Shown one piece after another: positions 17,643 through 57,813 of a stretch of 64,000 bases of DNA. Position numbers and translations under genes: made by a program. Numbering within the stretch: position 1 is the stretch's first letter; each line of letters begins with the position of its first letter. Source of the stretch: Candidatus Dojkabacteria bacterium (GTDB lineage Bacteria; Patescibacteriota; Dojkabacteria; B142; OLB20); the NCBI GenBank assembly GCA_035444565.1, contig DAOMOX010000002.1, positions 105,335 through 169,334 on the forward strand, in the 5' to 3' direction. Under the pieces are notes generated by a model. It was not told where the DNA came from and made no database searches. It saw only the letters and a list, made by a program, of their open reading frames with translations.

Positions 17643-17690
17643 GAGAGAGATCCCCCTCCCGTCATATTTTCAGACGGGATCGAGGGAAAT
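17643..17690. repeat. Solitary hairpin B unit of the composite repeat family
   Basis: gagagatccccctcccgtcatattttcagacgggatcgagggaaat matches B units at 42397-42492 and 45424-45478. Confidence 0.7.
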
Positions 17691-30854: not shown

Positions 30855-30861
30855 GAATACT

Positions 30862-32752: not shown

Positions 32753-32806
32753 ATATATGACACTATTGTATCAGATATAAAACATAGATTCAATACACAA
32801 ACATAT

Positions 32807-38295: not shown

Positions 38296-41200
38296 ATGGG
38301 GGACTTAGGCTTAGATAATAATCGCTGGTTGATTCCGAGATTGGACTATTTACCTGACGTTAATCCTTGGGATATGTTTAATCGAGAACGATTGCGCGTA
38401 TTTGGGGAGATAGTAGATAACTATTTTGTTCCACAATGCAATTTTCTTAGTTATGAAGATACAGAACAAGATTTAGATTATTTTGTTCAGAAATATCCAT
38501 TTTTATTAGATGGACAAGGAAGCCTTCCTCAATTGCATAGGAAAGTTTACGAACTTCAATCAAATGGGGTTTCTACACTAACAATTTTTGATATTTGTAT
38601 AGAATTTGACTGTCTTGATAAACTCGGCCAACAATTTCTAGAAAATCCACCACCTCATTTAGAATTAGGACTTAAAATTACAAACTCTGCAGAATATAAT
38701 TTGATACAACAAGCAGTAACAAGAAATCACCTACCTCAAGTTTTAAATTTTCTAAATTCTCTAATCCCCTTAAAAGAACCTGAAGGTGAAGAATACTTAA
38801 AACATCCAACACTCTGGTTAGAGCTACTAGGGAGTTCTTCAATGTACCGACCTAATGCAGTTATTCTGGCTGCTGAAAAAGGCAGTCTAAATCATCTAAC
38901 TGAAACAATCAAGTATTTGTCTACTATAGATGAAAACAGAACATTAAATTTATTCGAGAATGAATTTCAATTAGGTATGGGCGAATCAAATTTCTTACAT
39001 CATCTATTAAAAGGAAAACAATTGCATTCATCATTGATTGAGATGATTCAACAAGTTTATTCATCAAGCACTTATCGTCTTAAATCATTGCTTAATCAAA
39101 AAGACTTCTATGGGAATATTCCGACTCATGCCATATTGGGTCCTTACAGAGATTTTATTATACCATTAATAGATTTCGCTTATACGGAAGATAATGAAGG
39201 TTTAAAGTTGTTGCTAGAAAAATTTGGAATCTCAAATTTAATTAGGACCAGTGCCACGAGTAATTTACTACCAGGTCTAATAACTAAAACTTATAGTGAT
39301 GCAACTGAAATACTCTTAGAATACGTAACACCAGTCATCCATGACATTCTTAGAAATATTTCAATCACAGGAAACTTGGAGTCATTTGAAATATTGAAAC
39401 TAGCTTATTCATCTCATCCGGGAGAATTATTTAAAACATTTATTGAATCAGAGTCAAATGCTGAACTACTAATACATGCTGCTCAAAATCATCATGTAGC
39501 ATCTGCTAGGGAATACATAAAATACATATTTAAAGACCATCCAGATTTATTGCAAGAATATTTACATCGACCAGATTCAAATACTATCGCACAAGAAAAT
39601 GATACATACCAAATCGCATTTTTAAGATACCTTTCCTCTCCTCATGATTTCATTCCAGCAATGGAAATTTTGGAACAAGCATATTTAACTAATGATCAAA
39701 ACGGCGAGAACTCTCAAAAATTATCTGGGAAGAATATAATTCAACCTTTTTTAAAAGTAGCTTCGACTAATCCTGAAATCTTAACTTGTGAAGTAATTTC
39801 TAGGTTCAAATTGATATTAGATAGAAGTAATTACACTTATCTAATTAGTAATCCAGATGTAAGAGAAGTATTAGTAAATTATGAAATAGAACATATAGTA
39901 CCACGTTCAAATACATTTTTTCGAATGGGTATAGATGAACAATATTCAGGAGATATGGCACGTATTGCAGTAGAAGCATATACAGAATATTCTTATTTTA
40001 AACAAGTACTTGAATCCTACCCTACTATACTATCAAAAGTATTAGGGACTGAGCTTATAGTTAATCTTGGACCTACGGAAAACGAGGCAAGAAGTGCCTA
40101 TGATAGAGAAATTTTAGACATAAGTAAGAAATTTATATCGTTATTAGAAAATCATTTTAATATCAGAGGAAACTTTTACATTATTGACGAATCTGAACAA
40201 GATCAAGACATTCAGCCAACTGAGGATCTAATATCTCGCCTATTTCCGACTAGAAAGCATCAATTTTTTGTAAACGAAAAATTAATCACAGACATTTTCG
40301 AACAACCTCCTTTAACAAGGCTTGGTTTTCTTGCAAGAAGAGCATTATTGGGGGGAGACTTCCCTGATAGGCCAGAGGACAAAGCTTTGAGAAGTATTTT
40401 CCCAGAGGATTTTACAATGTTTTACAAGCCTGATAACGACTACTTGCCTATACCAATACTCCCAGAACACTGGGCAGAACTTGCTTTAAAGTTATCTCAT
40501 TGTACTCCTAATTTAGAAAATGGATCTTTCCTAGATAGCATACAAGTTATTTCTGGTATTGTAGACTCATTAAAGGAAATTGCTAAATTATCGGAAATAC
40601 CACTGACCGACAGGTTATTAACTGACATTGAAAGTTTTGCAAAGTTGTTAGGTAGATATTATATCAATACAGTTTATGCAACTGATAATACAAAGATTAA
40701 ATCCAAGGAAGAGGTAGATAAACACCCAATTATTATAAAAATCTTAGATCCAGATGATAACGAAGATTTGGCAGATTTTATAAGATATCGATTTGCAGGG
40801 GATCCCATACAAGATCTCAAACTTACGGCTCAATACAAACATTTGCCATCCGAAATTGGTTTGATGGCTTACGATCCACATACAACCGTAGCCCTCTTGT
40901 ATGAAAATCGTTCGGATGTAACTATTTCACTTGAAGAAGAGCATCCAATGGATAATGATTTTATGGATGAAATTTCAAAAGAAGAATTAAGGTATAACAT
41001 TGAACGATTAGCTTTTGGTTATGTAACAATAACTGAGGGTACATTTAGAACCTCAGAAGAGGAAGATGCTCGTCGTATAATCATCCTAGGAGACGCCGAG
41101 ATGGGATCTTACCGCAGCAATGCTAATGTTGCAGAAATCTTATTAACTCTCGCACGAACTCTAAAACAAAAAACAGGTCTGGATGTGATAATTTCTACCG

Positions 41201-41409
41201 CGTATCACAAAATTTTTGTAAACGAAAGTACTGCAGAAAGCTCAGATATATCAATACCGCCTACAACCTCTAAAATCAAGCGCAATTCAGAAACAAAAGT
41301 AACGGATAATACAGGGATACCGCTTTCAGAAGAAGTGTATTTACATCATCAAGAGGATAAAACGAAGGCACCAACGGCAGCAGAAAATTACTGGTTTATG
41401 ATTAGCTGA
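38296..41409 (+). CDS. Large orphan protein (1037 aa) with ankyrin-like N-terminal repeats and a DUF1524-like EHIVPRS motif
   Basis: Repeated ...NAVILAAEKGSLNHL..., ...NIPTHAILGPYRDFIIPLIDF... (ankyrin-like helices). YEIEHIVPRSNTF resembles the DHHIVPRSWG His-Me finger motif of the GmrSD gene at 57814-60090. Confidence 0.4.
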   Translation: MGDLGLDNNRWLIPRLDYLPDVNPWDMFNRERLRVFGEIVDNYFVPQCNFLSYEDTEQDLDYFVQKYPFLLDGQGSLPQLHRKVYELQSNGVSTLTIFDICIEFDCLDKLGQQFLENPPPHLELGLKITNSAEYNLIQQAVTRNHLPQVLNFLNSLIPLKEPEGEEYLKHPTLWLELLGSSSMYRPNAVILAAEKGSLNHLTETIKYLSTIDENRTLNLFENEFQLGMGESNFLHHLLKGKQLHSSLIEMIQQVYSSSTYRLKSLLNQKDFYGNIPTHAILGPYRDFIIPLIDFAYTEDNEGLKLLLEKFGISNLIRTSATSNLLPGLITKTYSDATEILLEYVTPVIHDILRNISITGNLESFEILKLAYSSHPGELFKTFIESESNAELLIHAAQNHHVASAREYIKYIFKDHPDLLQEYLHRPDSNTIAQENDTYQIAFLRYLSSPHDFIPAMEILEQAYLTNDQNGENSQKLSGKNIIQPFLKVASTNPEILTCEVISRFKLILDRSNYTYLISNPDVREVLVNYEIEHIVPRSNTFFRMGIDEQYSGDMARIAVEAYTEYSYFKQVLESYPTILSKVLGTELIVNLGPTENEARSAYDREILDISKKFISLLENHFNIRGNFYIIDESEQDQDIQPTEDLISRLFPTRKHQFFVNEKLITDIFEQPPLTRLGFLARRALLGGDFPDRPEDKALRSIFPEDFTMFYKPDNDYLPIPILPEHWAELALKLSHCTPNLENGSFLDSIQVISGIVDSLKEIAKLSEIPLTDRLLTDIESFAKLLGRYYINTVYATDNTKIKSKEEVDKHPIIIKILDPDDNEDLADFIRYRFAGDPIQDLKLTAQYKHLPSEIGLMAYDPHTTVALLYENRSDVTISLEEEHPMDNDFMDEISKEELRYNIERLAFGYVTITEGTFRTSEEEDARRIIILGDAEMGSYRSNANVAEILLTLARTLKQKTGLDVIISTAYHKIFVNESTAESSDISIPPTTSKIKRNSETKVTDNTGIPLSEEVYLHHQEDKTKAPTAAENYWFMIS

Positions 41410-42321: not shown

Positions 42322-42492
42322 CCCTGACTTGATCCCGCCTCCGTTACATGGCGGGACGGATCTCTAGGTTATGATTTACCTAAACAAATGTTTGAGAGAG
42401 ATCCCCTCCCGTCATGTTTTAAGACGGGATCGAGGGGAAATATATGAGAGAGATTCCCTCCCGTCATGTTTTTAGACGGGATCGAGGGGAAA
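42322..42492. repeat. Composite repeat element, copy 2 (unit A plus two hairpin B units), upstream of RND transporter
   Basis: ccctgacttgatcccgcctccgttacatggcgggacggatctctaggtt ... 2x gagagatcccctcccgtcatgttttaagacgggatcgaggggaaa. Confidence 0.8.
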
Positions 42493-45302: not shown

Positions 45303-45478
45303 TCCCTGACTTGATCTCCTCCGTTACATGGCGGTACGGATCTCTAGGTTGTGTATTACCTTAGAAATACTTAGGTAAAACGTTTGTGAGAGATCCCCTT
45401 TTTCAAGGGGAGATGTTGAATTTTTCGTTTACGAGAGATCCCCCTCCCGTCAAGTTTCTAGACGGGACCAGGGGGAAA
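45303..45478. repeat. Composite repeat element, copy 3 (unit A, a truncated B and a full B unit), downstream of RND transporter, same orientation as copy 2
   Basis: ccctgacttgatctcctccgttacatggcggtacggatctctaggtt ... gagagatcccctttttcaagggga ... gagagatccccctcccgtcaagtttctagacgggaccagggggaaat (compensatory extra C/G in stem). Confidence 0.8.
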
Positions 45479-46316: not shown

Positions 46317-46685
46317 CTATTCCTTTTTCTCATACTCGTGAATTAATTTTAATAGTTCAGGAAATTCGCTAAATTCTTTTCCAATTTTTTCTAATGCAAC
46401 TTTCTCTTTCTGGACTTTTAACTCTTTTGAAGCCTTGTCTGCGTAGAAAAATGTGTCCCCTGCATAAATCTCAACCAAATCATGAACTAATGCATACTTT
46501 ATTATTTTATCGATGTCGTATTTCAGTTTCTCTGTGGAAATTATGTACCAGGAGACCATGGCGAGTTGAAAGCTATGTTCAGAATCATTTTCTAATCGAT
46601 TTTCTCCTGTTGCGTAAATTCTCCGCTCAAGCTGATTAAATTTAATTATAAATTCTGAGAAGTTAAGGATTCTTTTGATGTTCAT
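46317..46685 (-). CDS. HD-domain phosphohydrolase (YfbR-like short form)
   Basis: SEHSFQLAM ... ALVHDLVEIYAGD (H...HD...D metal ligands). Confidence 0.55.
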   Translation of the reverse strand: MNIKRILNFSEFIIKFNQLERRIYATGENRLENDSEHSFQLAMVSWYIISTEKLKYDIDKIIKYALVHDLVEIYAGDTFFYADKASKELKVQKEKVALEKIGKEFSEFPELLKLIHEYEKKE

Positions 46686-46753: not shown

Positions 46754-47080
46754 TTATTGGTTGAGTTTATCACTAATTTCTTTATCCAAACTATCCATCG
46801 TCTCCATAAATACCTTCTCTAAATCAATATCATACTTTTTCGCAATTATGAGAATAGACCAAAGACAGTCCGAGAGCTCATGTGCTAACTTTTCTTGAGA
46901 ATTTTCTATCTCACGTTTACCATTTTGAGCCTGTATGAGTTTTACTAAATCTCCAATGTCACCAACTAATCCCATGGTCAAATCCTCAATTGACCAAGGT
47001 TTACCATACTTATTTGTCTCGAATTGTTCGTATTTTTCTCTGATTTCTAAAGCTCTTTTTTGGATTTCTGTGAGATTCAT
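46754..47080 (-). CDS. MazG-like nucleotide pyrophosphohydrolase (small all-alpha NTP-PPase)
   Basis: LTMGLVGDIGDLVKLI and AHELSDCLWSILIIAKKYDIDLE match MazG EExxE/D motifs. Confidence 0.55.
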   Translation of the reverse strand: MNLTEIQKRALEIREKYEQFETNKYGKPWSIEDLTMGLVGDIGDLVKLIQAQNGKREIENSQEKLAHELSDCLWSILIIAKKYDIDLEKVFMETMDSLDKEISDKLNQ

Positions 47081-47105
47081 TATGATTGATGTTAAATATG
47101 TATAA

Positions 47106-47149
47106 ATCGGGCTGGTGAGACTTCCCTGCTTTCGCAGGGATAAACTACA
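47106..47149 (-). repeat. tRNA 3'-end pseudo-fragment type A (T-stem/acceptor ...TCTCACCAGCCCGA) with conserved TTTATCCC-hairpin-GGGAAG insertion, copy 1
   Basis: Minus-sense GTAGTTTATCCCTGCGAAAGCAGGGAAGTCTCACCAGCCCGAT; identical copy at 47318-47361. Confidence 0.6.
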
Positions 47150-47233
47150 TTTCCTATAGCATCGTAGCCATGCCTACGCTAAAGCTACGGCAGACTCACG
47201 ATTGAGTAATTTCTCACTTCGTTCTAAAACTCA

Positions 47234-47285
47234 ATCGGAGCGACTAGACTTCCCTGCTTCCGCAGGGATAAACTCCCTAGCGACT
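47234..47285 (-). repeat. Pseudo-fragment of tRNA-Pro(GGG) 3' end (T-arm and acceptor) with the T-loop replaced by the conserved hairpin insertion
   Basis: Minus-sense GTCGCTAG[GGAGTTTATCCCTGCGGAAGCAGGGA]AGTCTAGTCGCTCCGAT versus intact gene GTCGCTAG[TTCG]AGTCTAGTCGCTCCGAT. Confidence 0.65.
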
Positions 47286-47317
47286 TAATAACTAATGTAG
47301 TTACACCATTCTTTGCA

Positions 47318-47361
47318 AATCGGGCTGGTGAGACTTCCCTGCCTTCGCAGGGATAAACTAC
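47318..47361 (-). repeat. tRNA 3'-end pseudo-fragment type A, copy 2
   Basis: Same as 47106-47149 with one loop substitution (ttt to ctt). Confidence 0.6.
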
Positions 47362-47374
47362 ATTTTATTTAAAA

Positions 47375-47448
47375 TCGGAGCGACTAGACTCGAACTAGCG
47401 ACCTCACGCACCCCATGCGTGCGTTCTAGCCAACTGAACTACGCTCCG
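47375..47448 (-). tRNA. tRNA-Pro (anticodon GGG)
   Basis: Minus-sense CGGAGCG TA GTTC AGTTGGCTA GAAC G CACGC ATGGGGT GCGTG AGGTC GCTAG TTCGAGT CTAGT CGCTCCG A, followed by TTTT. Confidence 0.8.
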
Positions 47449-47555
47449 CTAAATAAATTATACATCCTGAACTTAATTTTTACTAAATGCTTATCAATAA
47501 CATCATTAATCTGGTAAAATCTGTTACGATCTTTGAATGACCGGAGTTAACCTGT

Positions 47556-47879
47556 GGTGACATGGCCAAGCTTGTCCCGCCAAGGCGGGATGAAGTAAGG
47601 CATGGGTCAATCTTTCTAAGATGACCATATTGAAAAAGGAGATAAAAAACATAGCTATTTTAAAAAAGAATTAAAAGAGAGGAGAATAAACTCACCGGAG
47701 GATTCCTCGGATTAAGTGGTGACATGGCCAAGCTTGTCCCGCCAAGGCGGGATGAAGTAAGGCATGGGTCAATCTTTCTAAGATGACCATATTGAAAAAG
47801 GAGATAAAAAACATAGCTATTTTAAAAAAGAATTAAAAGAGAGGAGAATAAACTCACCGGAGGATTCCTCGGATTAAGT
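47556..47879 (+). repeat. Tandem direct repeat, 2 x 162 bp, each unit beginning with a 5' fragment of tRNA-Cys (nt 1-31) carrying a 25-nt D-loop hairpin insertion
   Basis: Units 47556-47717 and 47718-47879 identical: GGTGACATGGCCAAG[cttgtcccgccaaggcgggatgaag]TAAGGCATGGGTC|aatctttctaag... A third unit would start exactly at the intact tRNA-Cys (47880). Confidence 0.8.
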
Positions 47880-47950
47880 GGTGACATGGCCAAGTGGTAA
47901 GGCATGGGTCTGCAAAACCCTTATCCCGGGTTCGATTCCCGGTGTCACCT
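47880..47950 (+). tRNA. tRNA-Cys (anticodon GCA)
   Basis: GGTGACA TG GCC..GGC A TGGGT CTGCAAA ACCCT TATC CCGGG TTCGATT CCCGG TGTCACC T; U33, A37, no encoded CCA. Confidence 0.8.
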
Positions 47951-47952
47951 TT

Positions 47953-48037
47953 GCCGTGGTGGCGGAATTGGTATACGCGCTGGACTTAAAATCCAGTGGC
48001 CTTAACAGCCTTAAGGGTTCGAGTCCCTTCCGCGGCA
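47953..48037 (+). tRNA. tRNA-Leu (anticodon TAA), class II with long variable arm
   Basis: GCCGTGG ... CTGGA CTTAAAA TCCAG T GGC CTTAACA GCC TT AAGGG TTCGAGT CCCTT CCGCGGC A. Confidence 0.75.
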
Positions 48038-48066
48038 GTTGTTTTAATAATAAATGGTGCTTTTTG

Positions 48067-48133
48067 AAGGGACGAGAAGTTTATCCCGTGAAATTTATGA
48101 AAGAAATTTATACGGGAAGTCCCTTACGCGGCA
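48067..48133 (+). repeat. Pseudo-fragment of tRNA-Leu 3' end with T-loop replaced by a 49-nt insertion of the same family; downstream flank ttgttttaataat also duplicated
   Basis: AAGGG[ACGAGAAGTTTATCCCGTGAAATTTATGAAAGAAATTTATACGGGAAGT]CCCTTACGCGGCA versus AAGGG[TTCGAGT]CCCTTCCGCGGCA in the intact gene 30 nt upstream. Confidence 0.65.
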
Positions 48134-48185
48134 TTTGTTTTAATAATCCAGCAAATCCCGAATACTGAATTTTGAATTATTTAAC

Positions 48186-48289
48186 ACGGGATATAATTCA
48201 ATTTCCACCAGAGGCGGACCAGCCTTTGGCTGGGGCTAGAATGTACGCTTCGGGTGCGTAATGTTCCCGGTTCAAGTCCGGGTATCCCG
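48186..48289 (+). tRNA. tRNA-Pro (anticodon CGG) with about 28-nt insertion (putative non-canonical intron) in the D-loop; CCA follows at 48290-48292
   Basis: CGGGATA TA ATTC [A-ATTTCCACCAGAGGCGGACCAGCCTTTG-GCTGGGGCTA] GAAT G TACGC TTCGGGT GCGTA ATGTT CCCGG TTCAAGT CCGGG TATCCCG A. All stems Watson-Crick, G37 as expected for Pro. Confidence 0.6.
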
Positions 48290-48569
48290 ACCAATCAAGA
48301 CGTGATTTTTTGAAATATCACGTAAAGCCTCATACAGAGGGCTTATTTCCATGTTCGTAAGTTCGTAATTTTTATATGTGGGTACGTTCGTAAACATACT
48401 TCCCAAAATATCCCTTCTTTGATTAAAGGTTGCAATTTCCCAGTATCGGTCTATTTTTGCACCAAATTGGGCTAACATTGTTGAAGATTGGCAAATTCAT
48501 CTAGTAGGTTAATTCTCTTGTTACCTTTAAGGGTTGAAGGTTAAACCCTCAAAATTTGAGCAGTTGAAA

Positions 48570-48607
48570 CTTACTTTCTTTATCTCTAGCCGAAATAAGA
48601 AAGTAAG
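48570..48607. promoter_or_regulatory. 11-bp perfect inverted repeat cttactttctt-N16-aagaaagtaag upstream of XRE regulator/hsdR operon
   Basis: Perfect palindrome arms read directly from the sequence. Confidence 0.4.
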
Positions 48608-48616
48608 CAAAGAAAG

Positions 48617-48892
48617 TTGGCATTTCACTTACAAAAGTTGTATGATACAGTAATATCATATTACCAGTATTTGAACACTATGTTTACAAACATTGGAGAG
48701 AAAATTAAGAAAGTAAGAAACGATAAAGGGTTGACACAGGAGGAGTTAGCCCAAAAGGCTAATATCTCCTATATAACCCTTGTGAAAATTGAGCAAGGAA
48801 AGGTTGAGAATCCTACAATGAAGACTTTGCAAAAAATTGCAAAGGCATTGGAAATTTCTCTTGATGAAATAGTTAAAAATGTAAAACAATGA
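48617..48892 (+). CDS. XRE-family helix-turn-helix transcriptional regulator (controller of R-M operon), probable true start 48680
   Basis: IGEKIKKVRNDKGLTQEELAQKANISYITLVKIEQGK (HTH_XRE); stop overlaps hsdR start. Confidence 0.65.
   Translation: MAFHLQKLYDTVISYYQYLNTMFTNIGEKIKKVRNDKGLTQEELAQKANISYITLVKIEQGKVENPTMKTLQKIAKALEISLDEIVKNVKQ
48650..48664. promoter_or_regulatory. Operator-like palindrome GTAATAT-C-ATATTAC just upstream of probable XRE start (ATG 48680)
   Basis: Perfect 7-bp inverted repeat. Confidence 0.35.
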
Positions 48893-51279
48893 ATAAAAAT
48901 CAATTATCAGAAACAGACATTAGAACAAAGTTTATTACACCCGCAATTCAAGATGCAGGTTGGAATATTCAAAAGCAAGTGCGAGAGGAAGTCCACTTTA
49001 CTGATGGAAGGATAATTGTTAAAGGAGAAACAGTAAAAAGAGCTAAAGGTAAGAAAGCTGATTATATCCTGTACTACAAATCAAACCTTCCCATTGCAAT
49101 TGTCGAAGCTAAAGACAACAAACACTCGATTGGAGATGGTATGCAACAAGGACTTGATTATGCTGAAATCCTTGATATACCTTTTGTATTCTCAAGCAAT
49201 GGAGATGGTTTCCTAGAACATGATAGAACTATTTCAGAGGGAAAAGTAGAAAGAGAAATATCATTACAGCAATTTCCTTCACCAGAAGAACTTTATCAAC
49301 GTTATAAAATTTGGAAGGGGTTATCTAGCGAGCAAGAACAAATTTTAAAACAAGACTACTACTACTCACCAACAAGTAAGACACCAAGATACTATCAAGA
49401 AATAGCTATCAACAGGACTGTTGAATCTATAGCAAAGGGAAAAGATAGACTTCTTCTTGTAATGGCAACAGGTACAGGGAAAACCTTTACTGCCTTTCAG
49501 ATAATGTGGCGGTTATGGCAAGCAAAGAAAAAGAAAAGAATTCTTTTTGTCGCTGACAGAAATATTCTAGTTGATGATCCGATGAGAAGAGATTTTTCTC
49601 CATTTGGTGAGAAAATGACAAAGATTAATAGACTTAACTTTAATATTCAGAAATACTCTGCATACGAAATTTTTATTGGATTGTATCAAAGCATAACTGG
49701 TTTGGATGAATCCCAAAAAATTTATAAACAGTTTCCAAGAGATTTTTTTGATTTGATAGTCATTGACGAAGCACACAGAGGAAGTGCTTCTGATGATTCT
49801 GCTTGGAGAGAAATATTAGAGTATTTTAACAGTTCGACTCAAGTCGGTATGACTGCTACTCCAAAGCAAGAGCATGGAGCAGATAATATTGAATACTTTG
49901 GTGAACCAGTTTACACATATTCACTAAAACAAGGGATTGAAGATGGTTTTCTTGCCCCTTACAGGGTAATTAGAGTGACTCTTGATACGGATTCAGAAGG
50001 CTTTAGACCTTACACAGGTCAAGTTGATAAGTATGGAAACGAAATTCCAGATGAAGAATATAACGTGAAAGATTTTGATAGAAGAATTGTTATTGATGAA
50101 AGAACAGAAATCATTGCAAGAAAGATTACTGAATTTCTAAAAAATACAGACCGATTCTCAAAAACAATCGTTTTTTGTGTAGATATTGCTCATGCAGAAC
50201 GTATGAGACAAGCTTTAATGAATGAGAATGTTGATCTAGTAAACGAAAATCGAAAATATGTGATGCGAATTACTGGTGATAACGAGGAAGGTAAAAACGA
50301 ATTGGATAACTTTATTGACCCAGAACAAAAATATCCAGTTGTTGTAACTACTTCGAAGCTACTTACAACAGGAGTTGACGCTAAAACTTGTAAATTGATT
50401 GTGCTAGATACAAATATCAACTCAATGACTGAATTTAAACAGATTATTGGCAGAGGTACGAGACTTGACCCTGATTTTGACAAGTATTTCTTTACAATAA
50501 TGGACTTTAGACAGGCTACTAAGTTATTTGCTGACCCTGCATTTGACGGTCCTGCAATAAGCACATCTGAAAAAACAGAAGATGATGAGATTACTCTACC
50601 ATCTGAAGATGAATATGTAGTCACCCCAGAGGAAGCAGAAGCATTAAAAGATTCAGCTGATATTGAATATATAAGTTCAAAAAATGATGTTTCGATAGAT
50701 GGTGCACCTGAAAAGCCTAAGAAGTATTATGTAAATGGTGTTGATGTTGAAGTTATAAATGAAACAGTTCAGTACTATGATGAGAACGGAAAACTTACAA
50801 CAGAATCATTAAGAAGCTATACGAAGAAAAGTCTTATTAAAAGATATAAAACACTTAATGAATTTCTGAATGATTGGAATGATGCTGAAATGAAATCTGC
50901 AATACTAGAGGAGCTTGAGGAACAGGGAATCTTTTTTGAAGAATTGAAAAAAGAAGTTGGAAAAGAATTAGATCCTTTCGATATGATTCTACACATTGCT
51001 TTTGATAAACCACCTCTTACACGTAGAGAAAGAGCTAATAATGTCATTAAGAGAAACTATTTTGAAAAGTATGGAGAGGAAGCTCGAAAAGTTTTACAGG
51101 CACTTCTTGATAAATACTCCGATGAAGGAATTATGGCACTTGAAGATATGGAAGTACTGAAAGTTCAGCCAATAAATCAGTTTGGTTCTCCTGTAGAAAT
51201 CGTGAGTTATTTCGGAGGTAGAGAGCAATATGTTGAAGCAGTCCAACAAATGGAACAATTAATTTATATGCAAGCTTAA
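48889..51279 (+). CDS. hsdR: Type I restriction enzyme R subunit (short form)
   Basis: HsdR N-terminal nuclease region (KADYILYY...IVEAKD), MATGTGKT Walker A, IVIDEAHRG DEAH box. Confidence 0.8.
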   Translation: MNKNQLSETDIRTKFITPAIQDAGWNIQKQVREEVHFTDGRIIVKGETVKRAKGKKADYILYYKSNLPIAIVEAKDNKHSIGDGMQQGLDYAEILDIPFVFSSNGDGFLEHDRTISEGKVEREISLQQFPSPEELYQRYKIWKGLSSEQEQILKQDYYYSPTSKTPRYYQEIAINRTVESIAKGKDRLLLVMATGTGKTFTAFQIMWRLWQAKKKKRILFVADRNILVDDPMRRDFSPFGEKMTKINRLNFNIQKYSAYEIFIGLYQSITGLDESQKIYKQFPRDFFDLIVIDEAHRGSASDDSAWREILEYFNSSTQVGMTATPKQEHGADNIEYFGEPVYTYSLKQGIEDGFLAPYRVIRVTLDTDSEGFRPYTGQVDKYGNEIPDEEYNVKDFDRRIVIDERTEIIARKITEFLKNTDRFSKTIVFCVDIAHAERMRQALMNENVDLVNENRKYVMRITGDNEEGKNELDNFIDPEQKYPVVVTTSKLLTTGVDAKTCKLIVLDTNINSMTEFKQIIGRGTRLDPDFDKYFFTIMDFRQATKLFADPAFDGPAISTSEKTEDDEITLPSEDEYVVTPEEAEALKDSADIEYISSKNDVSIDGAPEKPKKYYVNGVDVEVINETVQYYDENGKLTTESLRSYTKKSLIKRYKTLNEFLNDWNDAEMKSAILEELEEQGIFFEELKKEVGKELDPFDMILHIAFDKPPLTRRERANNVIKRNYFEKYGEEARKVLQALLDKYSDEGIMALEDMEVLKVQPINQFGSPVEIVSYFGGREQYVEAVQQMEQLIYMQA

Positions 51280-51285
51280 ATCACT

Positions 51286-52716
51286 ATGGCACTATCAAAC
51301 CTCATAAAAACAATTCAGAATATAATGAGAAAAGATACAGGAGTTGATGGAGATGCTCAGCGAATCTCTCAGCTTACTTGGATGCTTTTCCTCAAGATAT
51401 TTGATGATAAAGAAAGTGAATATGAATTATTGGATTCAAATTATAAGTCCCCAATTCCAGAAGAACTTCGTTGGAGAAATTGGGCAGTAGAAGATACTGG
51501 AATTACAGGTGATGAATTGATAGATTTTATCAACGAAAAGCTTTTCCCTGGTCTAAAAAATATGAGTTGGCAGAAAGGAGATGATCCTAAGGGGTTTATT
51601 GTCAAAGAAATCTTTCAAGATAGCTACAATTATATGAAGTCAGGAACATTGATGAGGCAAGTTATCAATGTGATAGATAACGAAATTGACTTCAATAATA
51701 GTAAGCAAACTCATATTTTTAATGATATTTATGAGAAAATTTTAAAAGACCTCCAAAGTGCAGGAAACGCTGGCGAGTACTATACCCCACGAGCTGTAAC
51801 CAAGTTTGTTGTTGAGATGGTAGATCCACAACTCGGAGATAAGATTCTAGACCCTGCATGTGGTACAGGCGGATTTTTAATCGATTCACTTGAGCATATC
51901 AGAAACAATCAGGTTAAAACACCAGAAGAAGAAAAGCTATTGCAGAATTCAATTTATGGAACTGAAAAGAAGCCTCTTCCTCATATGCTTGTTATGACCA
52001 ACTTGATTCTACATGGCATTGAAGCTCCCCTAAATGTAAGGCGAGGAAATTCGTTAGCAAATTCTATTAGAGATATTACTCAAAAAGATCGTGTTGACGT
52101 TGTTATTACAAATCCTCCATTTGGTGGAATAGAACAAGATATGATCAAAAAAGGTTTTCCTACTCAATTCCAAACTAGTGAGACTGCAGACCTATTCTTA
52201 ATTATGATTATTGAGCTTCTGAAATCTGGTGGAAAAGCAGGAATAGTCTTACCAGATGGCTCACTTACTGGGGATGGGGTGAAAGCAAGAATTAGGGAAA
52301 AACTAATAACTGATTGCAACCTACATACGATTGTTAGGTTACCCAATTCGGTATTCGCACCATATGCGACTGTTGCTACAAATCTACTTTTTTTCACAAA
52401 AGGTGAATCAACAAAAGAAGTTTGGTATTACGAGCATACATTACCAGAAGGACAAAAATCATATTCAAAGACAAAAACTATTAATTTTGAAGAGTTTAAG
52501 CCAATACAAGAATGGTGGATTGATAGGAAAGAAAGTGAGGTGTCTTGGAAAGTAACTATCGATGATCTTCAAGAGACTGGCTTCAACTTAGATATTAAGA
52601 ATCCAAACAAGAAGGAGGATACTATTGAATTTACATCTGCTGAATTAATTAAGAAATTAGAAGATTCATTTGCAGATAGTAGAAAGCTACTTGAGGAAAT
52701 TAAAAAGGAATTATGA
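51286..52716 (+). CDS. hsdM: Type I R-M N6-adenine methyltransferase subunit
   Basis: DPACGTGGFLI motif I, ITNPPFGG motif IV. Confidence 0.85.
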   Translation: MALSNLIKTIQNIMRKDTGVDGDAQRISQLTWMLFLKIFDDKESEYELLDSNYKSPIPEELRWRNWAVEDTGITGDELIDFINEKLFPGLKNMSWQKGDDPKGFIVKEIFQDSYNYMKSGTLMRQVINVIDNEIDFNNSKQTHIFNDIYEKILKDLQSAGNAGEYYTPRAVTKFVVEMVDPQLGDKILDPACGTGGFLIDSLEHIRNNQVKTPEEEKLLQNSIYGTEKKPLPHMLVMTNLILHGIEAPLNVRRGNSLANSIRDITQKDRVDVVITNPPFGGIEQDMIKKGFPTQFQTSETADLFLIMIIELLKSGGKAGIVLPDGSLTGDGVKARIREKLITDCNLHTIVRLPNSVFAPYATVATNLLFFTKGESTKEVWYYEHTLPEGQKSYSKTKTINFEEFKPIQEWWIDRKESEVSWKVTIDDLQETGFNLDIKNPNKKEDTIEFTSAELIKKLEDSFADSRKLLEEIKKEL

Positions 52717-55403
52717 AACAGGAGTCATTATATGAAAATATTATTGAATGGTTAAAAGATAAGCCTTTATTTGTGCAAGACTCTGCTCGCAGGCTACTGC
52801 ACAATTCGGTTTTATCTGACAAGGACAAGGATGATATATTTATTTTACTTAAAAAAGAATGTGGTTTTGAGGGAATAGAACTAGTAAGCCAAGCAGTGAC
52901 ATCCTCTGACATCCCCTCAACAATTGCAAGCAATCAAGGATATCCGAAGTTATTATCAATCAAAAACCCTGTAAATATTAATGCCTTAAATACAAATGCT
53001 GTACTAAACTTTGATCCCAATGGTATTACTGTTGTATATGGGAAAAATGGATCTGGGAAATCAAGTTATTCAAGAATTTTAAAGCGCTTTTGTTGGAGTA
53101 GACATAAGGATACTAACATACTGCCAAATATTTATAGTTCCAATAATAATCCTCAATCTGTTGTTGTTGAGACAGATACCAATGAGCATAATTTAAAAAT
53201 AGCCGATCAAATATCAGTATCTGAATTAAATTCTATCTATGTATTCGATTCAAATTGTTCGTCTGTATATGTGAATAATGAAACTGAGACTCAATATAAA
53301 CCTGCAGAAATTGATCTTATACAAGATCTTGTAAACCTATTAAAGGATTTAAATCAACAGGTGAATAATGAAGAAGATAAATTAGTTACTACCAAACCAG
53401 AGCTGTCTTTTGAGGATTACCGTAACACTAATATTTATAGTTGGTATTCAAATATTGAAAAAGAATCATCTGAGAATATTTCATCTAAACTAACGATTAG
53501 TAAAGAGAATCGGAAGAGACACGGCGATTTAGAGGAGTTGCTCGCTAAAAGTGATCCAAGCAAGGAAAATCAAGATCTAATACAAAAGAAAACACGATAT
53601 GAGACCTTAAGAAATGAATTACTTAGAATTGAGAAAGCGTTTTCTAAGCTGAACTTTCAAAATATTAGGAAACTGAAAAACGATTTTAATATAAAGAAAG
53701 GTGCATACGAACTGTCGAAATCAATGATTGAAAAATATAATAAGTTAGCGGGCATAGGCTCTGAGTCTTGGAAACTATTATGGCAAGCTGCTAAGAAGTA
53801 TGCTACAACTGAAGTACATCCTCACGTGTCTGAGTATCCCTCTGGCACAAGTGCCAATGTATGTATGCTCTGTCAGCAGGATTTAGATAATGAAGCAAAG
53901 AAAAAGCAAATAGACTTTGACTCTTTTATCCAGAGTAATGCCAGTGCAGAATTTGATCAAGCGAAAAAAACTGTTTTAGATAAATACAACCAAATTGTCA
54001 ATGTAAAAATCACTGCCTCACAAGATACAATAGTAGAGATAAAACAAGACGTAGATGGATTTGAGGCTAAATATAATACATTTGAAACAGAATTTAAGAA
54101 AGTACAAGCTAGCTGGCTCAAATATTTAGATGAAAATGAAGCTACAAATGAGATCCTAATATCTGCTTATCAGGAAAAAGAAGAAGTATCAGAAAGTAAA
54201 GTAACACTCGAAGAAGTGAAAAGTGATCAAGTTCAAGTAATTGATAGTGTTATATATAAAGAGGAATTGAAGTGCATTTCCGATTTAATCGCTAAAGAGG
54301 TAGAAAATATAGAAGAAAAGATTCTCGCAAATAAGAAATTATTAGAAGATAGACCAACTTTGGAAAAGGAAAAAAAAGAGTTAGATGCATTGCTCTACCT
54401 TGAATCAAAGAAAACCGAACTTCTGGGATATTTAACAGAGTCTTCTCTTAAAGAAAGATATAAGTCTTGCAAAGCTAAGCTTAATACATCTCAATACTCA
54501 AAAAAAATAGGGGACTTATTAGAAACTAATGGTATTAATTTGTTGAAAACTGAATTTACATCTGTACTTAATTTCTTCAATACTGATCTTGCTTCAAAAG
54601 TTTGCTTAGAAAAAACCAGAACAGATAGCGGTACTACTTTCCACCAATTGGGATTCTCAACAATTAACGGAAGTATGAATTCTGTTTTGAGTGAAGGTGA
54701 ACAGAAAATAATTTCACTCTCTGGGTTCTTAGCCGAATGTACCATTGGTGGTGCGAAGAACACGATCGTATTCGATGATCCTGTAAATTCTCTTGATCAA
54801 GATTATCGAGAGGCTATAGCTGATAAATTAATAGAGCTTTGTAAGGACAGACAAATAATAGTATTTACTCACGACCTTTATTTTCTTAGCTTACTTATGT
54901 ATGGTTCAAAGGAAACTAATGGAGAAGAGTGTAAATCTTTGTCTTTAGAATTTGCGGAGAGTAGTGGAATCGTCACTGATGAAGTACCATTCTTAGCTAA
55001 GAATGTTCAACAAAGAATTGATAATATCAAAAGTGAACTTAATAAATTATCTTCGTTAACAAGTGGAAAAGATACCGCATTAGATTCAATTCGGAAGAAA
55101 ATGCGTTTTCTTGTCGAGAAATCAATAGAAGAGATACTTTCAAATAAAGCAATCCAAAGATTTAGCAAGAACATTACGGTCAAGAAAGACCTACTGGCCA
55201 GTTATGTGGTCACAGACAAAAATGATATTAACTACTTGATTGATTTATATGGAAAGTATTCTATTACAGAACATGATGGGGGCTTCGAGATTGTCCCAAA
55301 ACTTCCAGATGAAACTGCTATTAGAAACGATCTAACTGAGTTTTCAACTTGGAAGGATAAATTTAAAACTAAACTCGATACGTATAAAAATAATGGAATA
55401 TAA
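52713..55403 (+). CDS. RloC/PrrC-like ABC ATPase with long coiled coil and CxxC zinc hook, located between hsdM and hsdS (candidate anticodon nuclease or other R-M-linked effector)
   Basis: Walker A VVYGKNGSGKSS, central CMLCQQD in predicted coiled coil, ABC signature LSEGEQ, Walker B IVFDDPVNSLD, H-loop IVFTHD, about 160-aa C-terminal domain of unknown function. Confidence 0.45.
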   Translation: MKQESLYENIIEWLKDKPLFVQDSARRLLHNSVLSDKDKDDIFILLKKECGFEGIELVSQAVTSSDIPSTIASNQGYPKLLSIKNPVNINALNTNAVLNFDPNGITVVYGKNGSGKSSYSRILKRFCWSRHKDTNILPNIYSSNNNPQSVVVETDTNEHNLKIADQISVSELNSIYVFDSNCSSVYVNNETETQYKPAEIDLIQDLVNLLKDLNQQVNNEEDKLVTTKPELSFEDYRNTNIYSWYSNIEKESSENISSKLTISKENRKRHGDLEELLAKSDPSKENQDLIQKKTRYETLRNELLRIEKAFSKLNFQNIRKLKNDFNIKKGAYELSKSMIEKYNKLAGIGSESWKLLWQAAKKYATTEVHPHVSEYPSGTSANVCMLCQQDLDNEAKKKQIDFDSFIQSNASAEFDQAKKTVLDKYNQIVNVKITASQDTIVEIKQDVDGFEAKYNTFETEFKKVQASWLKYLDENEATNEILISAYQEKEEVSESKVTLEEVKSDQVQVIDSVIYKEELKCISDLIAKEVENIEEKILANKKLLEDRPTLEKEKKELDALLYLESKKTELLGYLTESSLKERYKSCKAKLNTSQYSKKIGDLLETNGINLLKTEFTSVLNFFNTDLASKVCLEKTRTDSGTTFHQLGFSTINGSMNSVLSEGEQKIISLSGFLAECTIGGAKNTIVFDDPVNSLDQDYREAIADKLIELCKDRQIIVFTHDLYFLSLLMYGSKETNGEECKSLSLEFAESSGIVTDEVPFLAKNVQQRIDNIKSELNKLSSLTSGKDTALDSIRKKMRFLVEKSIEEILSNKAIQRFSKNITVKKDLLASYVVTDKNDINYLIDLYGKYSITEHDGGFEIVPKLPDETAIRNDLTEFSTWKDKFKTKLDTYKNNGI

Positions 55404-56568
55404 AATCCAGAAAGTAAAACTCAAGGATGTTTGTAAAATAGAAAAAGGCAAGATAGGTATTACGAAAGCAGTAAAAGGAGAATATCCTTTGGTTGTAACT
55501 GCTGAAGAAAGATTAAGCCACAACGAATGGCATTTCAATGAACCTGCGACAATTGTACCCCTTGTCTCTTCTACTGGTCACGGGCATGCAAGTATAAAAA
55601 GGCTACATTACGCAGATGGTAAATATGCTGTTGGAAATATACTTGCTACTCTTATTCCAATAGATCATGACTATCTTAATGCTAAATATCTTTATGTGTA
55701 TCTAACAATAAATAAAGAGGAATTATTGGTATCGCAAATGACTGGGGCAGCTAACGTCACTCTAACACTTACTAGATTAGCAGATGTAGAAATTGAAATT
55801 CCCGATTATGCCACTCAACTAAAAGTTATAAACCGTTATGAAGATTCTGAAAATTTCAAGAATCAGATGGGTTCACAAATAGAAGTTAGATCCCAGTTAA
55901 TTGAAAATCTCCGCCAACAAATTCTCAATGATGCGATAACAGGTAAATTATCAGAAAAATGGAGGAGAGACAATCTGGGAGACGTAATTACTGACATAGG
56001 TACAGGTTGGAAAATATGTAGGTTATTTGAAGTGGCAGACTTTTTTAATGGCAAGGCTCATGAACCTATTGTCTCTGAGAATGGTAAATTTATATTAATT
56101 AACTCTAAATTTGTTTCGAACTCAGGTGATACAAAGATAAAAATGGTAACGGAAAGGCTAACACCACTTCAAAGTGGAGATATTGCATTTGTTATGAGTG
56201 ATGTACCAGGTGGAAGAGCACTTGCAAGAACATATTTAGTTGAACGAGATGATAAATATTCCCTTAATCAAAGGATTTGTGGTTTTAAAGCAAAAAGTTG
56301 TATTTTACCCGCTTTCTTGAATGTAATTCTGAATAGAAATGATTATTTTTTATCTTTTGATGATGGAAAAAAGCAAACAAATTTAAGAAAAGACCAAATC
56401 ATACAGTTTGAATTTTCTCTTCCTTCAATTTCAGAACAACACTATATTGTGGAGGGAATAAAATCTCTATTTATAAAGATCGATCGAATAAATCAAATAA
56501 ACAATGAGAATCTGACCATGGTTGATCTTCTGAACAAAGTATCACTTAAAGAATTGTTCGGCAATTAA
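55393..56568 (+). CDS. hsdS: Type I R-M specificity subunit
   Basis: Two TRD halves with conserved spacer helices (…LRQQILNDAITGKL…, …VEGIKSLFIKIDRINQI…). Confidence 0.75.
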   Translation: MEYKIQKVKLKDVCKIEKGKIGITKAVKGEYPLVVTAEERLSHNEWHFNEPATIVPLVSSTGHGHASIKRLHYADGKYAVGNILATLIPIDHDYLNAKYLYVYLTINKEELLVSQMTGAANVTLTLTRLADVEIEIPDYATQLKVINRYEDSENFKNQMGSQIEVRSQLIENLRQQILNDAITGKLSEKWRRDNLGDVITDIGTGWKICRLFEVADFFNGKAHEPIVSENGKFILINSKFVSNSGDTKIKMVTERLTPLQSGDIAFVMSDVPGGRALARTYLVERDDKYSLNQRICGFKAKSCILPAFLNVILNRNDYFLSFDDGKKQTNLRKDQIIQFEFSLPSISEQHYIVEGIKSLFIKIDRINQINNENLTMVDLLNKVSLKELFGN

Positions 56569-56585
56569 GTTATAATAATATACTT

Positions 56586-57791: not shown

Positions 57792-57813
57792 AATACTTAT
57801 ATTAAAATATCTT

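Follow-up and report, generated by a model that had tools for sequence, protein, structure and literature searches.

A GIY-YIG nuclease as a candidate cause of hairpin-capped tRNA gene stubs in a Dojkabacteria tRNA cluster

Few bacterial sequences are as conserved and stable as tRNA genes. SegB, a free-standing GIY-YIG endonuclease encoded in a phage tRNA array, cuts within tRNA genes at RAWTSGAAC; the resulting breaks lead to tandemly amplified units made of a tRNA and a truncated seg gene, and to co-conversion of flanking markers (PMC13096335, PMC2988022). Partial tRNAs are well documented at integration hot spots (PMC9897764; bioRxiv 10.1101/2020.12.28.424599). In fractured genes, as described by Dassa et al. 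2009 (PMC2677866), a free-standing endonuclease gene lies between two pieces of a gene. Mobile GC-rich palindromic clusters and double-hairpin elements are reported from AT-rich fungal and sponge mitochondrial genomes (PMC4478555, PMC2800124).

The tRNA cluster described here lies in a 64-kb stretch of Dojkabacteria DNA (the window, meaning the whole stretch that was analysed). As with SegB in phages T4 and T6, a GIY-YIG gene is found among the tRNA genes, intact in the relatives L054, L055 and L056 and reduced to two 22-codon remnants in the window. As in SegB amplification, there are tandem units of a tRNA-Cys stub and a truncated GIY-YIG gene, here together with stubs broken in the T-loop and with allele replacement, and, like a homing cassette, the element is polymorphic for presence and absence at one site among close relatives. 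The reverse complement of the SegB site, GTTCSAWTY, matches the T-loop, and tRNA-Cys in the window has GTTCGATTC. Unlike SegB, the gene resides in a bacterial (CPR) chromosome and not in a phage, its predicted product, of 87 aa, is a bare catalytic domain from the Slx1-like branch that lacks a DNA-binding domain, and the element sits inside a tRNA gene, which it restores by duplicating the 5' segment. The stubs here carry position-specific hairpins, which the accessible portions of the SegB reports (PMC13096335, PMC2988022) do not mention.

The other systems resemble the cluster in part. Like the att-site partial tRNAs of tycheposons, prophages and ICEs, it has direct repeats of tRNA 3' ends, fragments beside an intact gene and the setting of an island-flanked hot spot; unlike them, it has no integrase, its inserts measure tens of bp and not kb, replacement extends to the 5' part of a tRNA, 5' stubs occur and a hairpin stands at every junction. 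The likeness to fractured genes is that an endonuclease gene is inserted in a conserved gene and separates its pieces; there, split inteins restore function at the protein level (PMC2677866), whereas here a tRNA segment is duplicated or replaced and the old piece appears dead. With the mitochondrial GC clusters (PMC4478555, PMC2800124) the locus shares short GC-rich hairpins in an AT-rich genome, filled and empty sites between relatives and double-hairpin forms, but those clusters are dispersed and intergenic, and the hairpins here keep to the loops and stubs of tRNA genes, where their positions are fixed.

Layout of the cluster and its hairpins

The features of the cluster, in coordinates of the window, are:

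47107-47146 (-), terminal allele-A stub: hairpin module 47123-47146 (AGTTTATCCCTGCGAAAGCAGGGA), then tRNA-Pro(GGG) allele A nt 58-76 (47107-47122)
47147-47234 (-), 88-nt spacer: the relatives' 15-nt spacer plus a 64-nt insertion
47235-47284 (-), allele-B stub: T-stem 5' strand GTCGCTAG plus GG (47275-47284), hairpin 47251-47274, allele B nt 58-76 (47235-47250)
47285-47319 (-), 35-nt spacer, the same as the 3' flank of the intact allele-A gene in L001
47320-47359 (-), second allele-A stub: hairpin module 47336-47359 with loop GAAG, allele A nt 58-76 (47320-47335)
47360-47448 (-), intact tRNA-Pro(GGG) allele B (47375-47448) with its 15-nt 3' spacer (47360-47374)
47554-47877 (+), two identical 162-bp tRNA-Cys units, each with Cys nt 1-15, D-loop hairpin CTTGTCCCGCCAAGGCGGGATGAAG, Cys nt 19-32 and about 108 nt
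47880-47950 (+), intact tRNA-Cys(GCA)
47952-48038 (+), intact tRNA-Leu(UAA)
48039-48147 (+), Leu unit: spacer 48039-48065, arm GAAGGGACGAGA 48066-48077, 40-nt hairpin module 48078-48117, Leu nt 58-76 stub 48118-48133, repeated flank 48134-48147
48187-48293 (+), interrupted tRNA-Pro(CGG): exact 30-nt double-hairpin insertion 48204-48233 (TCCACCAGAGGCGGACCAGCCTTTGGCTGG) between D-loop nt 17 and 18

We found four tRNA 3'-end stubs in the window (two of tRNA-Pro allele A, one of tRNA-Pro allele B and one of tRNA-Leu), in agreement with an earlier note on this DNA. Every one of them starts at T-loop nt 58, right behind a conserved, stable hairpin, AGTTTATCCC…GGGA/AGT (the slash marks the junction). 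The recurring hairpin/GGGAAG signature that the note had pointed out is equally well founded: GTTTATCCC occurs four times in the window against 0.44 expected, always inside the cluster, and the full hairpin pattern occurs three times against 0 expected, with all copies again in the cluster. Both intact parents that it had assigned are present, tRNA-Pro(GGG) at 47375-47448 (-) and tRNA-Leu(UAA) at 47952-48038 (+), and the Leu fragment does duplicate its downstream flank (stub 48066-48133 (+), 13-nt flank repeated at 48134-48147). Its description of the fragments as 3' strands only fits the A stubs alone, the B and Leu stubs having kept the T-stem 5' strand, and the long hairpin that it had put at 49 nt measures 40 nt. 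The stubs are not an assembly artefact, a possibility that it had raised, because independent assemblies reproduce them: GCA_035445885.1 is identical to the window over 47000-48699, and three further assemblies match over the parts that they cover. The note had overlooked the two tRNA-Cys 5' stubs (47554-47877), the D-loop insertion in tRNA-Pro(CGG) (48204-48233) and the nature of its 'type A', which is a real alternative allele of tRNA-Pro(GGG), intact in close relatives; the GIY-YIG link and the allele replacement were not visible to it.

The junction GGGA/AGTC at nt 57/58 is common to 11 of 11 distinct units of hairpin and stub in six genomes. The T-loop hairpin is found in A, B and Leu, and all three tRNAs that bear it share the T-loop TTCGAGT. 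A related hairpin lies in the D-loop of the tRNA-Cys 5' stubs and of Leu, another at nt 9/10 of alleles A and B, and another at nt 17/18 of tRNA-Pro(CGG) and allele A. Hairpin stabilities range from -13.6 to -19.8 kcal/mol; in the allele-B stub the T-stem folds around the hairpin (-18.8 kcal/mol). Pairing is kept, with one compensatory T·A to C·G change in L054 and three of four loop positions variable, and the two copies of the 9/10 hairpin differ by four compensatory pairs.

The terminal A stub adjoins the start of a MazG-like gene, and a unit orthologous to it is found in L001, L005, L044 and L054. The 64-nt spacer insertion next to it is bordered in L044 by a 9-bp direct repeat, GCTCCGATT. 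Compared with L005 and L044, where the site is empty, the window has gained 96 bp in the Leu unit, which forms a 30-nt direct repeat with a spacing of 96. Outside its insertion the interrupted tRNA-Pro(CGG), a gene that ARAGORN missed, is identical to the uninterrupted gene of L001, L003, L004, L005 and L044; it is followed by an island absent from L044. Variable defence islands lie on both sides of the tRNA cluster.

Allele replacement and a GIY-YIG element among close relatives

The relatives compared form a narrow Dojkabacteria clade. Among them and the window, six haplotypes differ by gain or loss of units of stub, spacer and hairpin and by the identity of the intact allele, and flank identity among the genomes that carry them is 91-99%. 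In L049, intact allele A is followed by native flank, the naive state. L054 has at this same chromosomal site allele B, 11 nt, a hairpin and allele A nt 58-76, after which the flank of L049 resumes; allele A has been replaced by allele B, nt 1-57 included. An A 5' stub is retained upstream of B in L005 and L044, and L001 has the reverse arrangement, with B stubs around intact A. What separates L044 from L005 is a tandem copy of the B 3' end with spacer and hairpin; between the window and L044 the difference is one unit that lies between two hairpins. The terminal unit of hairpin and stub is kept in every haplotype, and the gene beside it varies (MazG, AcrB or S51). Direct repeats of a tRNA 3' segment flank the inserted DNA, namely 30 nt of Leu in the window, B nt 58-76 in L044, and Cys in L005 and L049. 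The alternating A and B stubs could reflect serial invasions, or could instead come from a single ancestral array that was amplified and then collapsed. No tRNA cluster is present in AcrB-anchored loci at 54-62% identity.

In L054, L055 and L056 an 87-aa stand-alone GIY-YIG ORF (Pfam, 1e-13), intact in all three, has on one side a Cys 5' stub (nt 1-34), which bears the same D-loop hairpin, and on the other the intact tRNA-Cys. The site is empty in L049 and filled in L054, with flank identity of 99/102, and is also empty in L001, L005 and L044. The 162-bp repeats of the window keep the last 22 GIY-YIG codons (47647-47712 and 47809-47874), which are 77% identical to the C-terminus of the L054 ORF (E=8e-6, tblastn against the fetched loci). 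The tRNA-Cys repeat of the window is an internally deleted copy of the relative's GIY-YIG-bearing element. No ribozyme was found at the GIY-YIG unit of L054 to L056. The protein has no domain besides the catalytic one. It belongs to the prokaryotic minimal Slx1-like branch (PMC1564403), with 1zg2 and 1ywl as its best PDB hits, and not to the I-TevI/Seg homing branch; its matches to PHROG homing endonucleases are weak. Direct association with the GIY-YIG gene is limited to the tRNA-Cys 5' stubs: in none of the loci examined does a nuclease gene adjoin a hairpin stub of Pro or Leu, and tblastn detects no GIY-YIG remnants in the Pro and Leu spacers, which are too short to be informative. A link between the nuclease and the Pro and Leu hairpin stubs is inferred.

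Break and repair as a possible origin of the stubs

As the best, though tentative, reading we propose, by analogy with SegB of phage T4, that the stubs may be scars left where tRNA gene segments were broken and then replaced or duplicated during repair. The observations behind it are how the stubs are built, their invariable junction, the differences among near-identical genomes, the exchange of allele A for B with nt 1-57 included, and the GIY-YIG element with its remnant in the window. The fragments would be non-functional, and tRNA genes in this Dojkabacteria lineage would have been broken repeatedly at conserved loop positions, the 3' stubs always deriving from breaks at T-loop nt 57/58 and the 5' stubs from breaks in the D-arm or anticodon region. 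Repair by recombination would bring in either a second copy of the broken segment or a complete alternative allele originating in another strain, and the displaced piece of the old gene would remain beside the new intact gene. The TCCC…GGGA hairpin would stand exactly at the break point, splitting the conserved loop sequence, so that the stub could not fold like a tRNA arm and, in the model, would no longer present the loop sequence recognised by the nuclease; this would presumably be the purpose of the hairpin. The stub arrays would expand and contract by recombination between the repeated units.

A nuclease would make the breaks, and the likely agent is the predicted small stand-alone GIY-YIG protein. 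Such cassettes would carry its gene, as suggested by the intact copy in the duplicated tRNA-Cys of one relative and the two internally deleted copies in the window, and the Pro and Leu hairpin units would once have carried such a gene too. Because the intact tRNAs keep the same T-loop sequence, an enzyme that cuts the T-loop would have to discriminate by other means or be absent at present. The model gives no account of the origin of the hairpin sequence itself.

More speculatively, and in our judgement doubtful, the locus may record an undescribed selfish cassette of the CPR. It would combine a minimal Slx1-like GIY-YIG nuclease with TCCC…GGGA hairpins and invade essential tRNA genes at conserved loops, the host being spared not by splicing but by a replacement segment or divergent allele borne on the cassette. 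Successive displacement (A to B to A to B) would leave hairpin-capped stubs and a host dependent on the tRNA of the cassette.

Other explanations and implications

The hairpins could alternatively be GC-rich palindromic mini-elements, autonomous or mobilised in trans in the manner of REP, MITE or mitochondrial GC clusters, that insert into single-stranded loops of tRNA genes and persist only in redundant partial duplicates; the duplications would be unrelated, with no nuclease-driven replacement. We consider this possible but not probable. It accounts for the 30 nt cleanly inserted into a tRNA-Pro(CGG) that is otherwise the same as in five relatives with empty sites, for hairpins of the same types at the same positions across different tRNAs, for the nested and expanded hairpins of L044, and for GC-rich modules in an AT-rich genome (34.6% GC). 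The earlier note's small T-loop-targeting element, the nearest of its three proposals, agrees likewise with the fixed 57/58 junction and with the filled and empty sites in tRNA-Pro(CGG). Both run against the distribution of the hairpin, since the many dispersed genome copies typical of REP and MITE families are not seen: the exact Pro-type hairpin is confined to the cluster in the window, has two copies in the whole related MAG L001, both at the cluster locus, and is found in no other GTDB species representative. Mini-elements also leave unexplained the start of every stub at nt 58, the replacement of A by B and the GIY-YIG ORF in one unit.

It is unlikely that the units are, as the earlier note had also suggested, serial attL/attR remnants of integrative elements that target tRNA genes through a tyrosine recombinase with its crossover in the T-loop, their interiors later deleted and the hairpin representing the conserved part of attP on the element's side. 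Direct repeats beginning at nt 58 and extending past the tRNA 3' end into flanking DNA (30 bp for Leu) are as expected, and so is the island-rich setting, with variable defence islands around the cluster and one after tRNA-Pro(CGG) that L044 lacks; the partial tRNAs documented at integration hot spots offer a precedent (PMC9897764; bioRxiv 10.1101/2020.12.28.424599). However, no tyrosine or serine recombinase was found with Pfam, NCBIfam and PADLOC in window ORFs of at least 100 aa (apart from three that overlap longer ORFs) or with precomputed Pfam annotation in all related loci, and no integrase, cas gene or transposase was found in the 64-kb window. The supposed elements between the repeats are only 39-96 bp, and no tRNA-end fragment occurs elsewhere in the window, distant island boundaries included. 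Viral contigs scanned for the hairpin, three hairpin/stub junctions, the 3' ends of both alleles and the GIY-YIG protein gave nothing relevant to a phage or attP origin, nor did phage BLAST; a degenerate tRNA-Pro 3'-end pattern had 34 matches on viral contigs, all to other tRNAs. Furthermore, T-loop integration leaves nt 1-57 of the resident gene unchanged, whereas the A 3' stubs follow genes that are allele B throughout: L049 is naive A, L054 and the window are replaced states, and the replacement of A nt 1-57 by B therefore cannot be produced by an integrase acting at the T-loop. The 5' stubs with internal hairpins are also left unexplained.

We regard it as highly improbable that the units function as an RNA or DNA signal, be it for processing, as a decoy or as a guide that pairs with tRNA 3' ends, or that they are CRISPR-like repeats in a degenerate form. 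In favour, only the loop is variable, stem and flanks being conserved, and the terminal unit is kept in all haplotypes. Against it, units are freely gained and lost between near-identical genomes beside differing genes (MazG, AcrB or S51), there is no Rfam family match, and in the cluster no terminator was detected and promoter-like sites are at background level. The opposite strand of the hairpin, GACTTCCCTGCnnnnGCAGGGATAAACT, shares 20 of 29 positions with the E. coli type I-E repeat in a comparison by hand. A type I-E-like CRISPR array is rejected because no cas gene was found in the window, the spacing is irregular (128, 85 and 55 bp), the loops differ between copies and the repeat is confined to this locus, no GTDB representative having an array with it. 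The note's remaining proposal, split, permuted or intron-containing tRNA genes, is rejected because intact genes are present, the 5' half of allele A is absent from the window, and no group I intron, other ribozyme or other RNA family was detected; the group I introns of Patescibacteria tRNAs (PMC13011429) differ in position, size and mechanism.

Whatever its agent, this single 1.2-kb cluster has at least six structural haplotypes among near-identical genomes, which include exchange of an entire tRNA-Pro(GGG) allele and the insertion of hairpins at specific positions. Stubs and interrupted genes of this kind mislead tRNA annotation, as with tRNA-Pro(CGG), and break assemblies, since several contigs end within these repeats. 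If break and repair by a minimal GIY-YIG nuclease drives the changes, homing and amplification of the SegB type would extend from phages to bacterial chromosomes. The widespread and uncharacterised stand-alone Slx1-like GIY-YIG proteins would then have a concrete, testable substrate, and selfish DNA would have a route into essential RNA genes without a ribozyme.

Truncated and interrupted tRNA genes of the cluster

On the 3' side of the intact tRNA-Pro(GGG) gene, which represents the allele referred to here as B, the minus strand carries three units that each consist of a hairpin (AGTTTATCCCTGC-nnnn-GCAGGGA) followed by AGT, the T-stem 3' strand, the acceptor 3' strand and the discriminator (tRNA nt 58–76). 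We refer to such leftover pieces of tRNA genes as stubs. One stub comes from the same tRNA as the intact gene, and the other two are of a different type, A. The Leu unit contains, in order, GAAGGGACGAGA, a form of the hairpin that has identical ends and measures 40 nt, Leu nt 58–76 and a repeated 13-nt downstream flank.

tRNA genes and tRNA-derived units (window coordinates)
47107–47146, minus: second type A stub unit
47235–47284, minus: allele B stub unit, T-stem 5' strand also retained
47320–47359, minus: type A stub unit
47375–47448, minus: intact tRNA-Pro(GGG), allele B
47554–47877: two identical 162-bp units, directly upstream of intact tRNA-Cys
47880–47950: intact tRNA-Cys
47952–48038, plus: intact tRNA-Leu(UAA)
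48066–48147, plus: Leu stub unit, 27 nt after tRNA-Leu(UAA)
48187–48293: complete tRNA-Pro(CGG), interrupted by a 30-nt double hairpin at 48204–48233

The four stubs and their hairpins are present as the earlier note had described them. They are not the assembly artefact that the note had considered, because separate assemblies and contigs reproduce them: NCBI assembly GCA_035445885.1 matches window 47000–48699 exactly, and an activated-sludge ENA contig, a second NCBI MAG and a Logan contig agree over the parts they cover.

The Cys units, the interrupted tRNA-Pro(CGG) and their hairpins belong to the same phenomenon. Each 162-bp unit opens with tRNA-Cys nt 1–15, the hairpin CTTGTCCCGCCAAGGCGGGATGAAG in place of D-loop nt 16–18, and Cys nt 19–32. 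The double hairpin of tRNA-Pro(CGG) lies between D-loop nt 17 and 18, and apart from this insertion the gene is identical to an uninterrupted gene in 5 relatives. Because of the insertion, ARAGORN does not call the gene. Its Rfam score falls below threshold. This gene encodes CCA and is directly followed by the restriction-modification (R-M) island in the window, versus an S51 peptidase gene in L044, a related locus.

The hairpins of the cluster have the form TCCC-stem-loop-stem-GGGA or are closely related 15-nt palindromes, with stabilities of -13.6 to -19.8 kcal/mol. The 9-mer GTTTATCCC occurs four times in the window (0.44 expected) and the full hairpin pattern three times (0 expected), all within the 1.2-kb tRNA cluster, and no fragments of the five tRNAs were found elsewhere in the window. 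The 3' stubs of four different tRNAs all start at nt 58; the junction GGGA/AGTC appears in every one of the 11 distinct units that have the AGTTTAT…GGGA hairpin, and all three tRNAs found with this hairpin have TTCGAGT as their T-loop. Three of the four loop positions differ from copy to copy, while stem and flanks show no change beyond one compensatory T·A→C·G pair (locus L054) and one mismatch (locus L005). The duplicated tRNA segment ends at different points on its right side (nt 76 +2, +3 or +13) and is therefore not of fixed length like a transposase target duplication. The earlier note had also suggested looking for the hairpin signature elsewhere in the genome; in the whole MAG of L001, a related locus, the exact Pro-type hairpin occurs at this locus only, and it is absent from all other GTDB species representatives, so it is not a dispersed repeat.

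The one hairpin-bearing GTDB genome is a Dojkabacteria MAG, and homologues of the adjoining AcrB-like gene are named Candidatus Dojkabacteria. The window (GC 34.6%) contains two type I R-M systems, a UG14 defence reverse transcriptase, AbiE, Mrr, PDC-S06, GmrSD and a CBASS cyclase/E2 pair, and no integrase, transposase or cas gene. Among the genes of the first R-M operon (HsdR, HsdS, HsdM; 25057–34384, minus) lie those of the UG14-class reverse transcriptase (PADLOC E=1.9e-180) and of an AbiEi/AbiEii pair. In the region 48889–60090 and 61610–63383 (plus), genes for a PDC-S06 ATPase and a DUF2130 protein alternate with those of the second operon, after which come a GmrSD_N–Schlafen (AlbA_2) fusion, LexA and the CBASS cyclase and E2 pair. 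Between the Mrr-type nuclease and AcrB-like genes lies a 1037-aa ORF (38296–41409, plus) with no match in Pfam, NCBIfam or PADLOC, which is missing from the syntenic loci L003 and L004. An HD/YfbR-like gene (46317–46685, minus) encodes 122 aa, compared with 197 aa in L003 (10006–10599), L004 (9489–10082) and L044; a separate 59-aa ORF is called in L045, and in the strain of the window the gene has probably been truncated or split. A second, unrelated nested-hairpin repeat, …GATCCCC(C)TCCCGTCA-n9-GACGGGA(T/C)C(G/A)AGGGG…, is dispersed over several window sites (8460–8493, 17650–17690, 42403–42437, 42455–42490, 45440–45475; also L001 6695–6729 and 7905–7935) and looks REP-, MITE- or terminator-like.

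Haplotypes and allele replacement in relatives

We compared syntenic clusters of relatives in which the 102-nt flank beside the Pro gene is 91–99% identical. Type A proved to be a second tRNA-Pro(GGG) allele, intact in L001 and L049 and fully functional-looking in sequence. Most differences between the two alleles are compensatory changes, and these affect all four stems.

tRNA-Pro(GGG) haplotypes, tRNA-sense (HP, hairpin module; 5' and 3', stubs)
L049: flank-A-native flank; no stubs
L054: flank-B-11 nt-HP-A3'-native flank same as L049
L005: flank-A5'stub-B-88 nt-HP-A3'
L044: flank-A5'stub-B-15 nt-HP-B3'-88 nt-HP-A3'
Window: flank-B-15 nt-HP-A3'-35 nt-T5'(B)GG-HP-B3'-88 nt-HP-A3'
L001: flank-B5'stub-A-35 nt-T5'(B)GG-HP-B3'-15 nt-HP-A3'

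The 5' stubs of both alleles carry hairpins at nt 9/10, of which two copies are four compensatory pairs apart, and A stubs have an additional one at 17/18, the same module as in the window's tRNA-Pro(CGG). In L044 (~1130–1200) the latter has grown to about 61 nt, with further 15-nt palindromes (TGAGCCATAGGCACA, TCAGCCTTTGGTTGA) nested in its loop, which suggests local multiplication of mini-palindromes. A 64-nt insertion in the spacer after the B3' stub occurs in the window (47160–47232), L005 and L044 (~1335–1415) and is missing from L001; in L044 it is bounded on both sides by a 9-bp direct repeat, GCTCCGATT, that resembles a target-site duplication.

The window, L001, L003/L004 and L054 all have the Leu unit, for which L005, L044 and L049 show a clean empty site. 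A tRNA-Cys 3' stub in L005 and L049 has a different hairpin at the same T-loop position, and a tRNA-Leu 5' stub in L049 and L054 has a Cys-type hairpin in the D-loop. Unlike in the window, the MazG-like gene of L003 and L004 adjoins the opposite, tRNA-Pro(CGG)/Leu-stub end, and the cluster is therefore inverted or rearranged there. Both contigs stop inside the Leu hairpin stub (L003 10994–11172; L004 10477–10689); AcrB identity is 96%.

A GIY-YIG element at tRNA-Cys

In three relatives (L054, L055 and L056), the region upstream of tRNA-Cys contains a conserved flank, Cys nt 1–15, a D-loop hairpin, Cys nt 19–34, two 15-nt hairpins, an 87-codon ORF, 2 nt and then the intact tRNA-Cys. This ORF encodes a GIY-YIG catalytic domain (Pfam E=1e-13) whose best solved relatives, 1zg2 and 1ywl, were placed by Dunin-Horkawicz et al. 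in the minimal stand-alone prokaryotic Slx1-like branch and not in the I-TevI/Seg homing branch (PMC1564403). The element lies at anticodon position 34/35 and, judged from its sequence, restores tRNA-Cys by duplicating the 5' segment of the gene; Rfam detected no ribozyme in it. Since the tRNA-Cys region of L049 is uninterrupted beside a flank identical at 99 of 102 positions, the element was gained or lost recently.

The two ends of this element can be aligned with the 162-bp units of the window. The peptide KHSYFKKELKERRINSPEDSSD, still encoded in each unit, shares 77% identity with the final 22 residues of the GIY-YIG protein (tblastn against the compared loci, E=8e-6). The window therefore has two tandem, internally deleted copies of the element.

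Proposed break-and-repair and competing explanations

The structure of the units, their polymorphism, the replacement of one allele by the other, and the GIY-YIG element together with its window remnant are established here. To account for them, we tentatively favour break-and-repair reshaping of tRNA genes as the most likely mechanism. Breaks at conserved tRNA loop positions would be repaired by recombination with sister or allelic DNA, with two possible outcomes: a second copy of the broken segment, as for Leu, Cys and B3' in L044, or acquisition of a divergent allele along with its flanks (A↔B). What is displaced would be left as a stub, its conserved loop split by a hairpin, and recombination between repeated units would then remodel the array. 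We infer that a nuclease initiates the breaks, that it is the GIY-YIG protein of the L054–L056 element, and that the Pro and Leu units once carried its gene. The hairpin would make the stub uncleavable or unfoldable; more speculatively, it might itself be cut at its 3' side by a structure-specific Slx1-like nuclease. The weak points are that no ORF adjoins any Pro or Leu hairpin stub, that the protein has no DNA-binding domain, and that the T-loop sequence is unchanged in intact tRNA genes.

Independent palindromic mini-elements combined with unrelated duplications are an unlikely alternative: they would explain the clean 30-nt insertion in tRNA-Pro(CGG), but neither the confinement of the hairpin nor the fixed nt-58 boundary.

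Partial tRNA genes are normally attL/attR sites (PMC9897764; tycheposon preprint, bioRxiv 10.1101/2020.12.28.424599), and the direct repeats here resemble such sites; the interpretation in the earlier note, whose readings were serial att remnants of integrases, split or intron-containing tRNAs, or a T-loop-targeting mobile element, is partly supported. Att remnants are nevertheless improbable. No recombinase, including the integrase the note had proposed to look for, was found in the window or any related locus; only 39–96 bp separate the repeats; no viral contig has the hairpin, the junctions or either allele; and 5' stubs with internal hairpins fall outside the model. Most telling, between L049 and L054 nt 1–57 of A are swapped for B at the same promoter-proximal position, leaving only nt 58–76 of A behind the hairpin, whereas a T-loop crossover would not alter the 5' part of the resident gene. 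A role as functional RNA or as CRISPR-like repeats is highly improbable, given the absence of cas genes from the window, the irregular spacing, the free gain and loss of units and the lack of an Rfam match.

Break-and-repair has a precedent in SegB of phages T4/T6, as described in two reports (PMC13096335; PMC2988022): this free-standing GIY-YIG endonuclease, whose gene lies in the phage tRNA array, cuts within tRNA genes at a mapped motif, RAWTSGAAC. Its reverse complement, GTTCSAWTY, is the T-loop sequence (GTTCGATTC in tRNA-Cys here). According to the same reports, SegB breaks lead to homologous-recombination-dependent tandem amplification of a unit of tRNA gene and truncated segB, the array collapses again without selection, and free-standing endonucleases also co-convert flanking markers. 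By analogy, a SegB-like process would leave stub units in tandem, arrays that grow and shrink by whole units, and a neighbouring allele that has been replaced, as found here. Fragments of tRNA genes have been described before, as have GIY-YIG endonucleases in tRNA arrays. What is new is their combination on a bacterial (CPR) chromosome: a minimal Slx1-like nuclease lies within a duplicated tRNA gene, every stub carries hairpins at specific positions, and a whole tRNA allele has been replaced serially.
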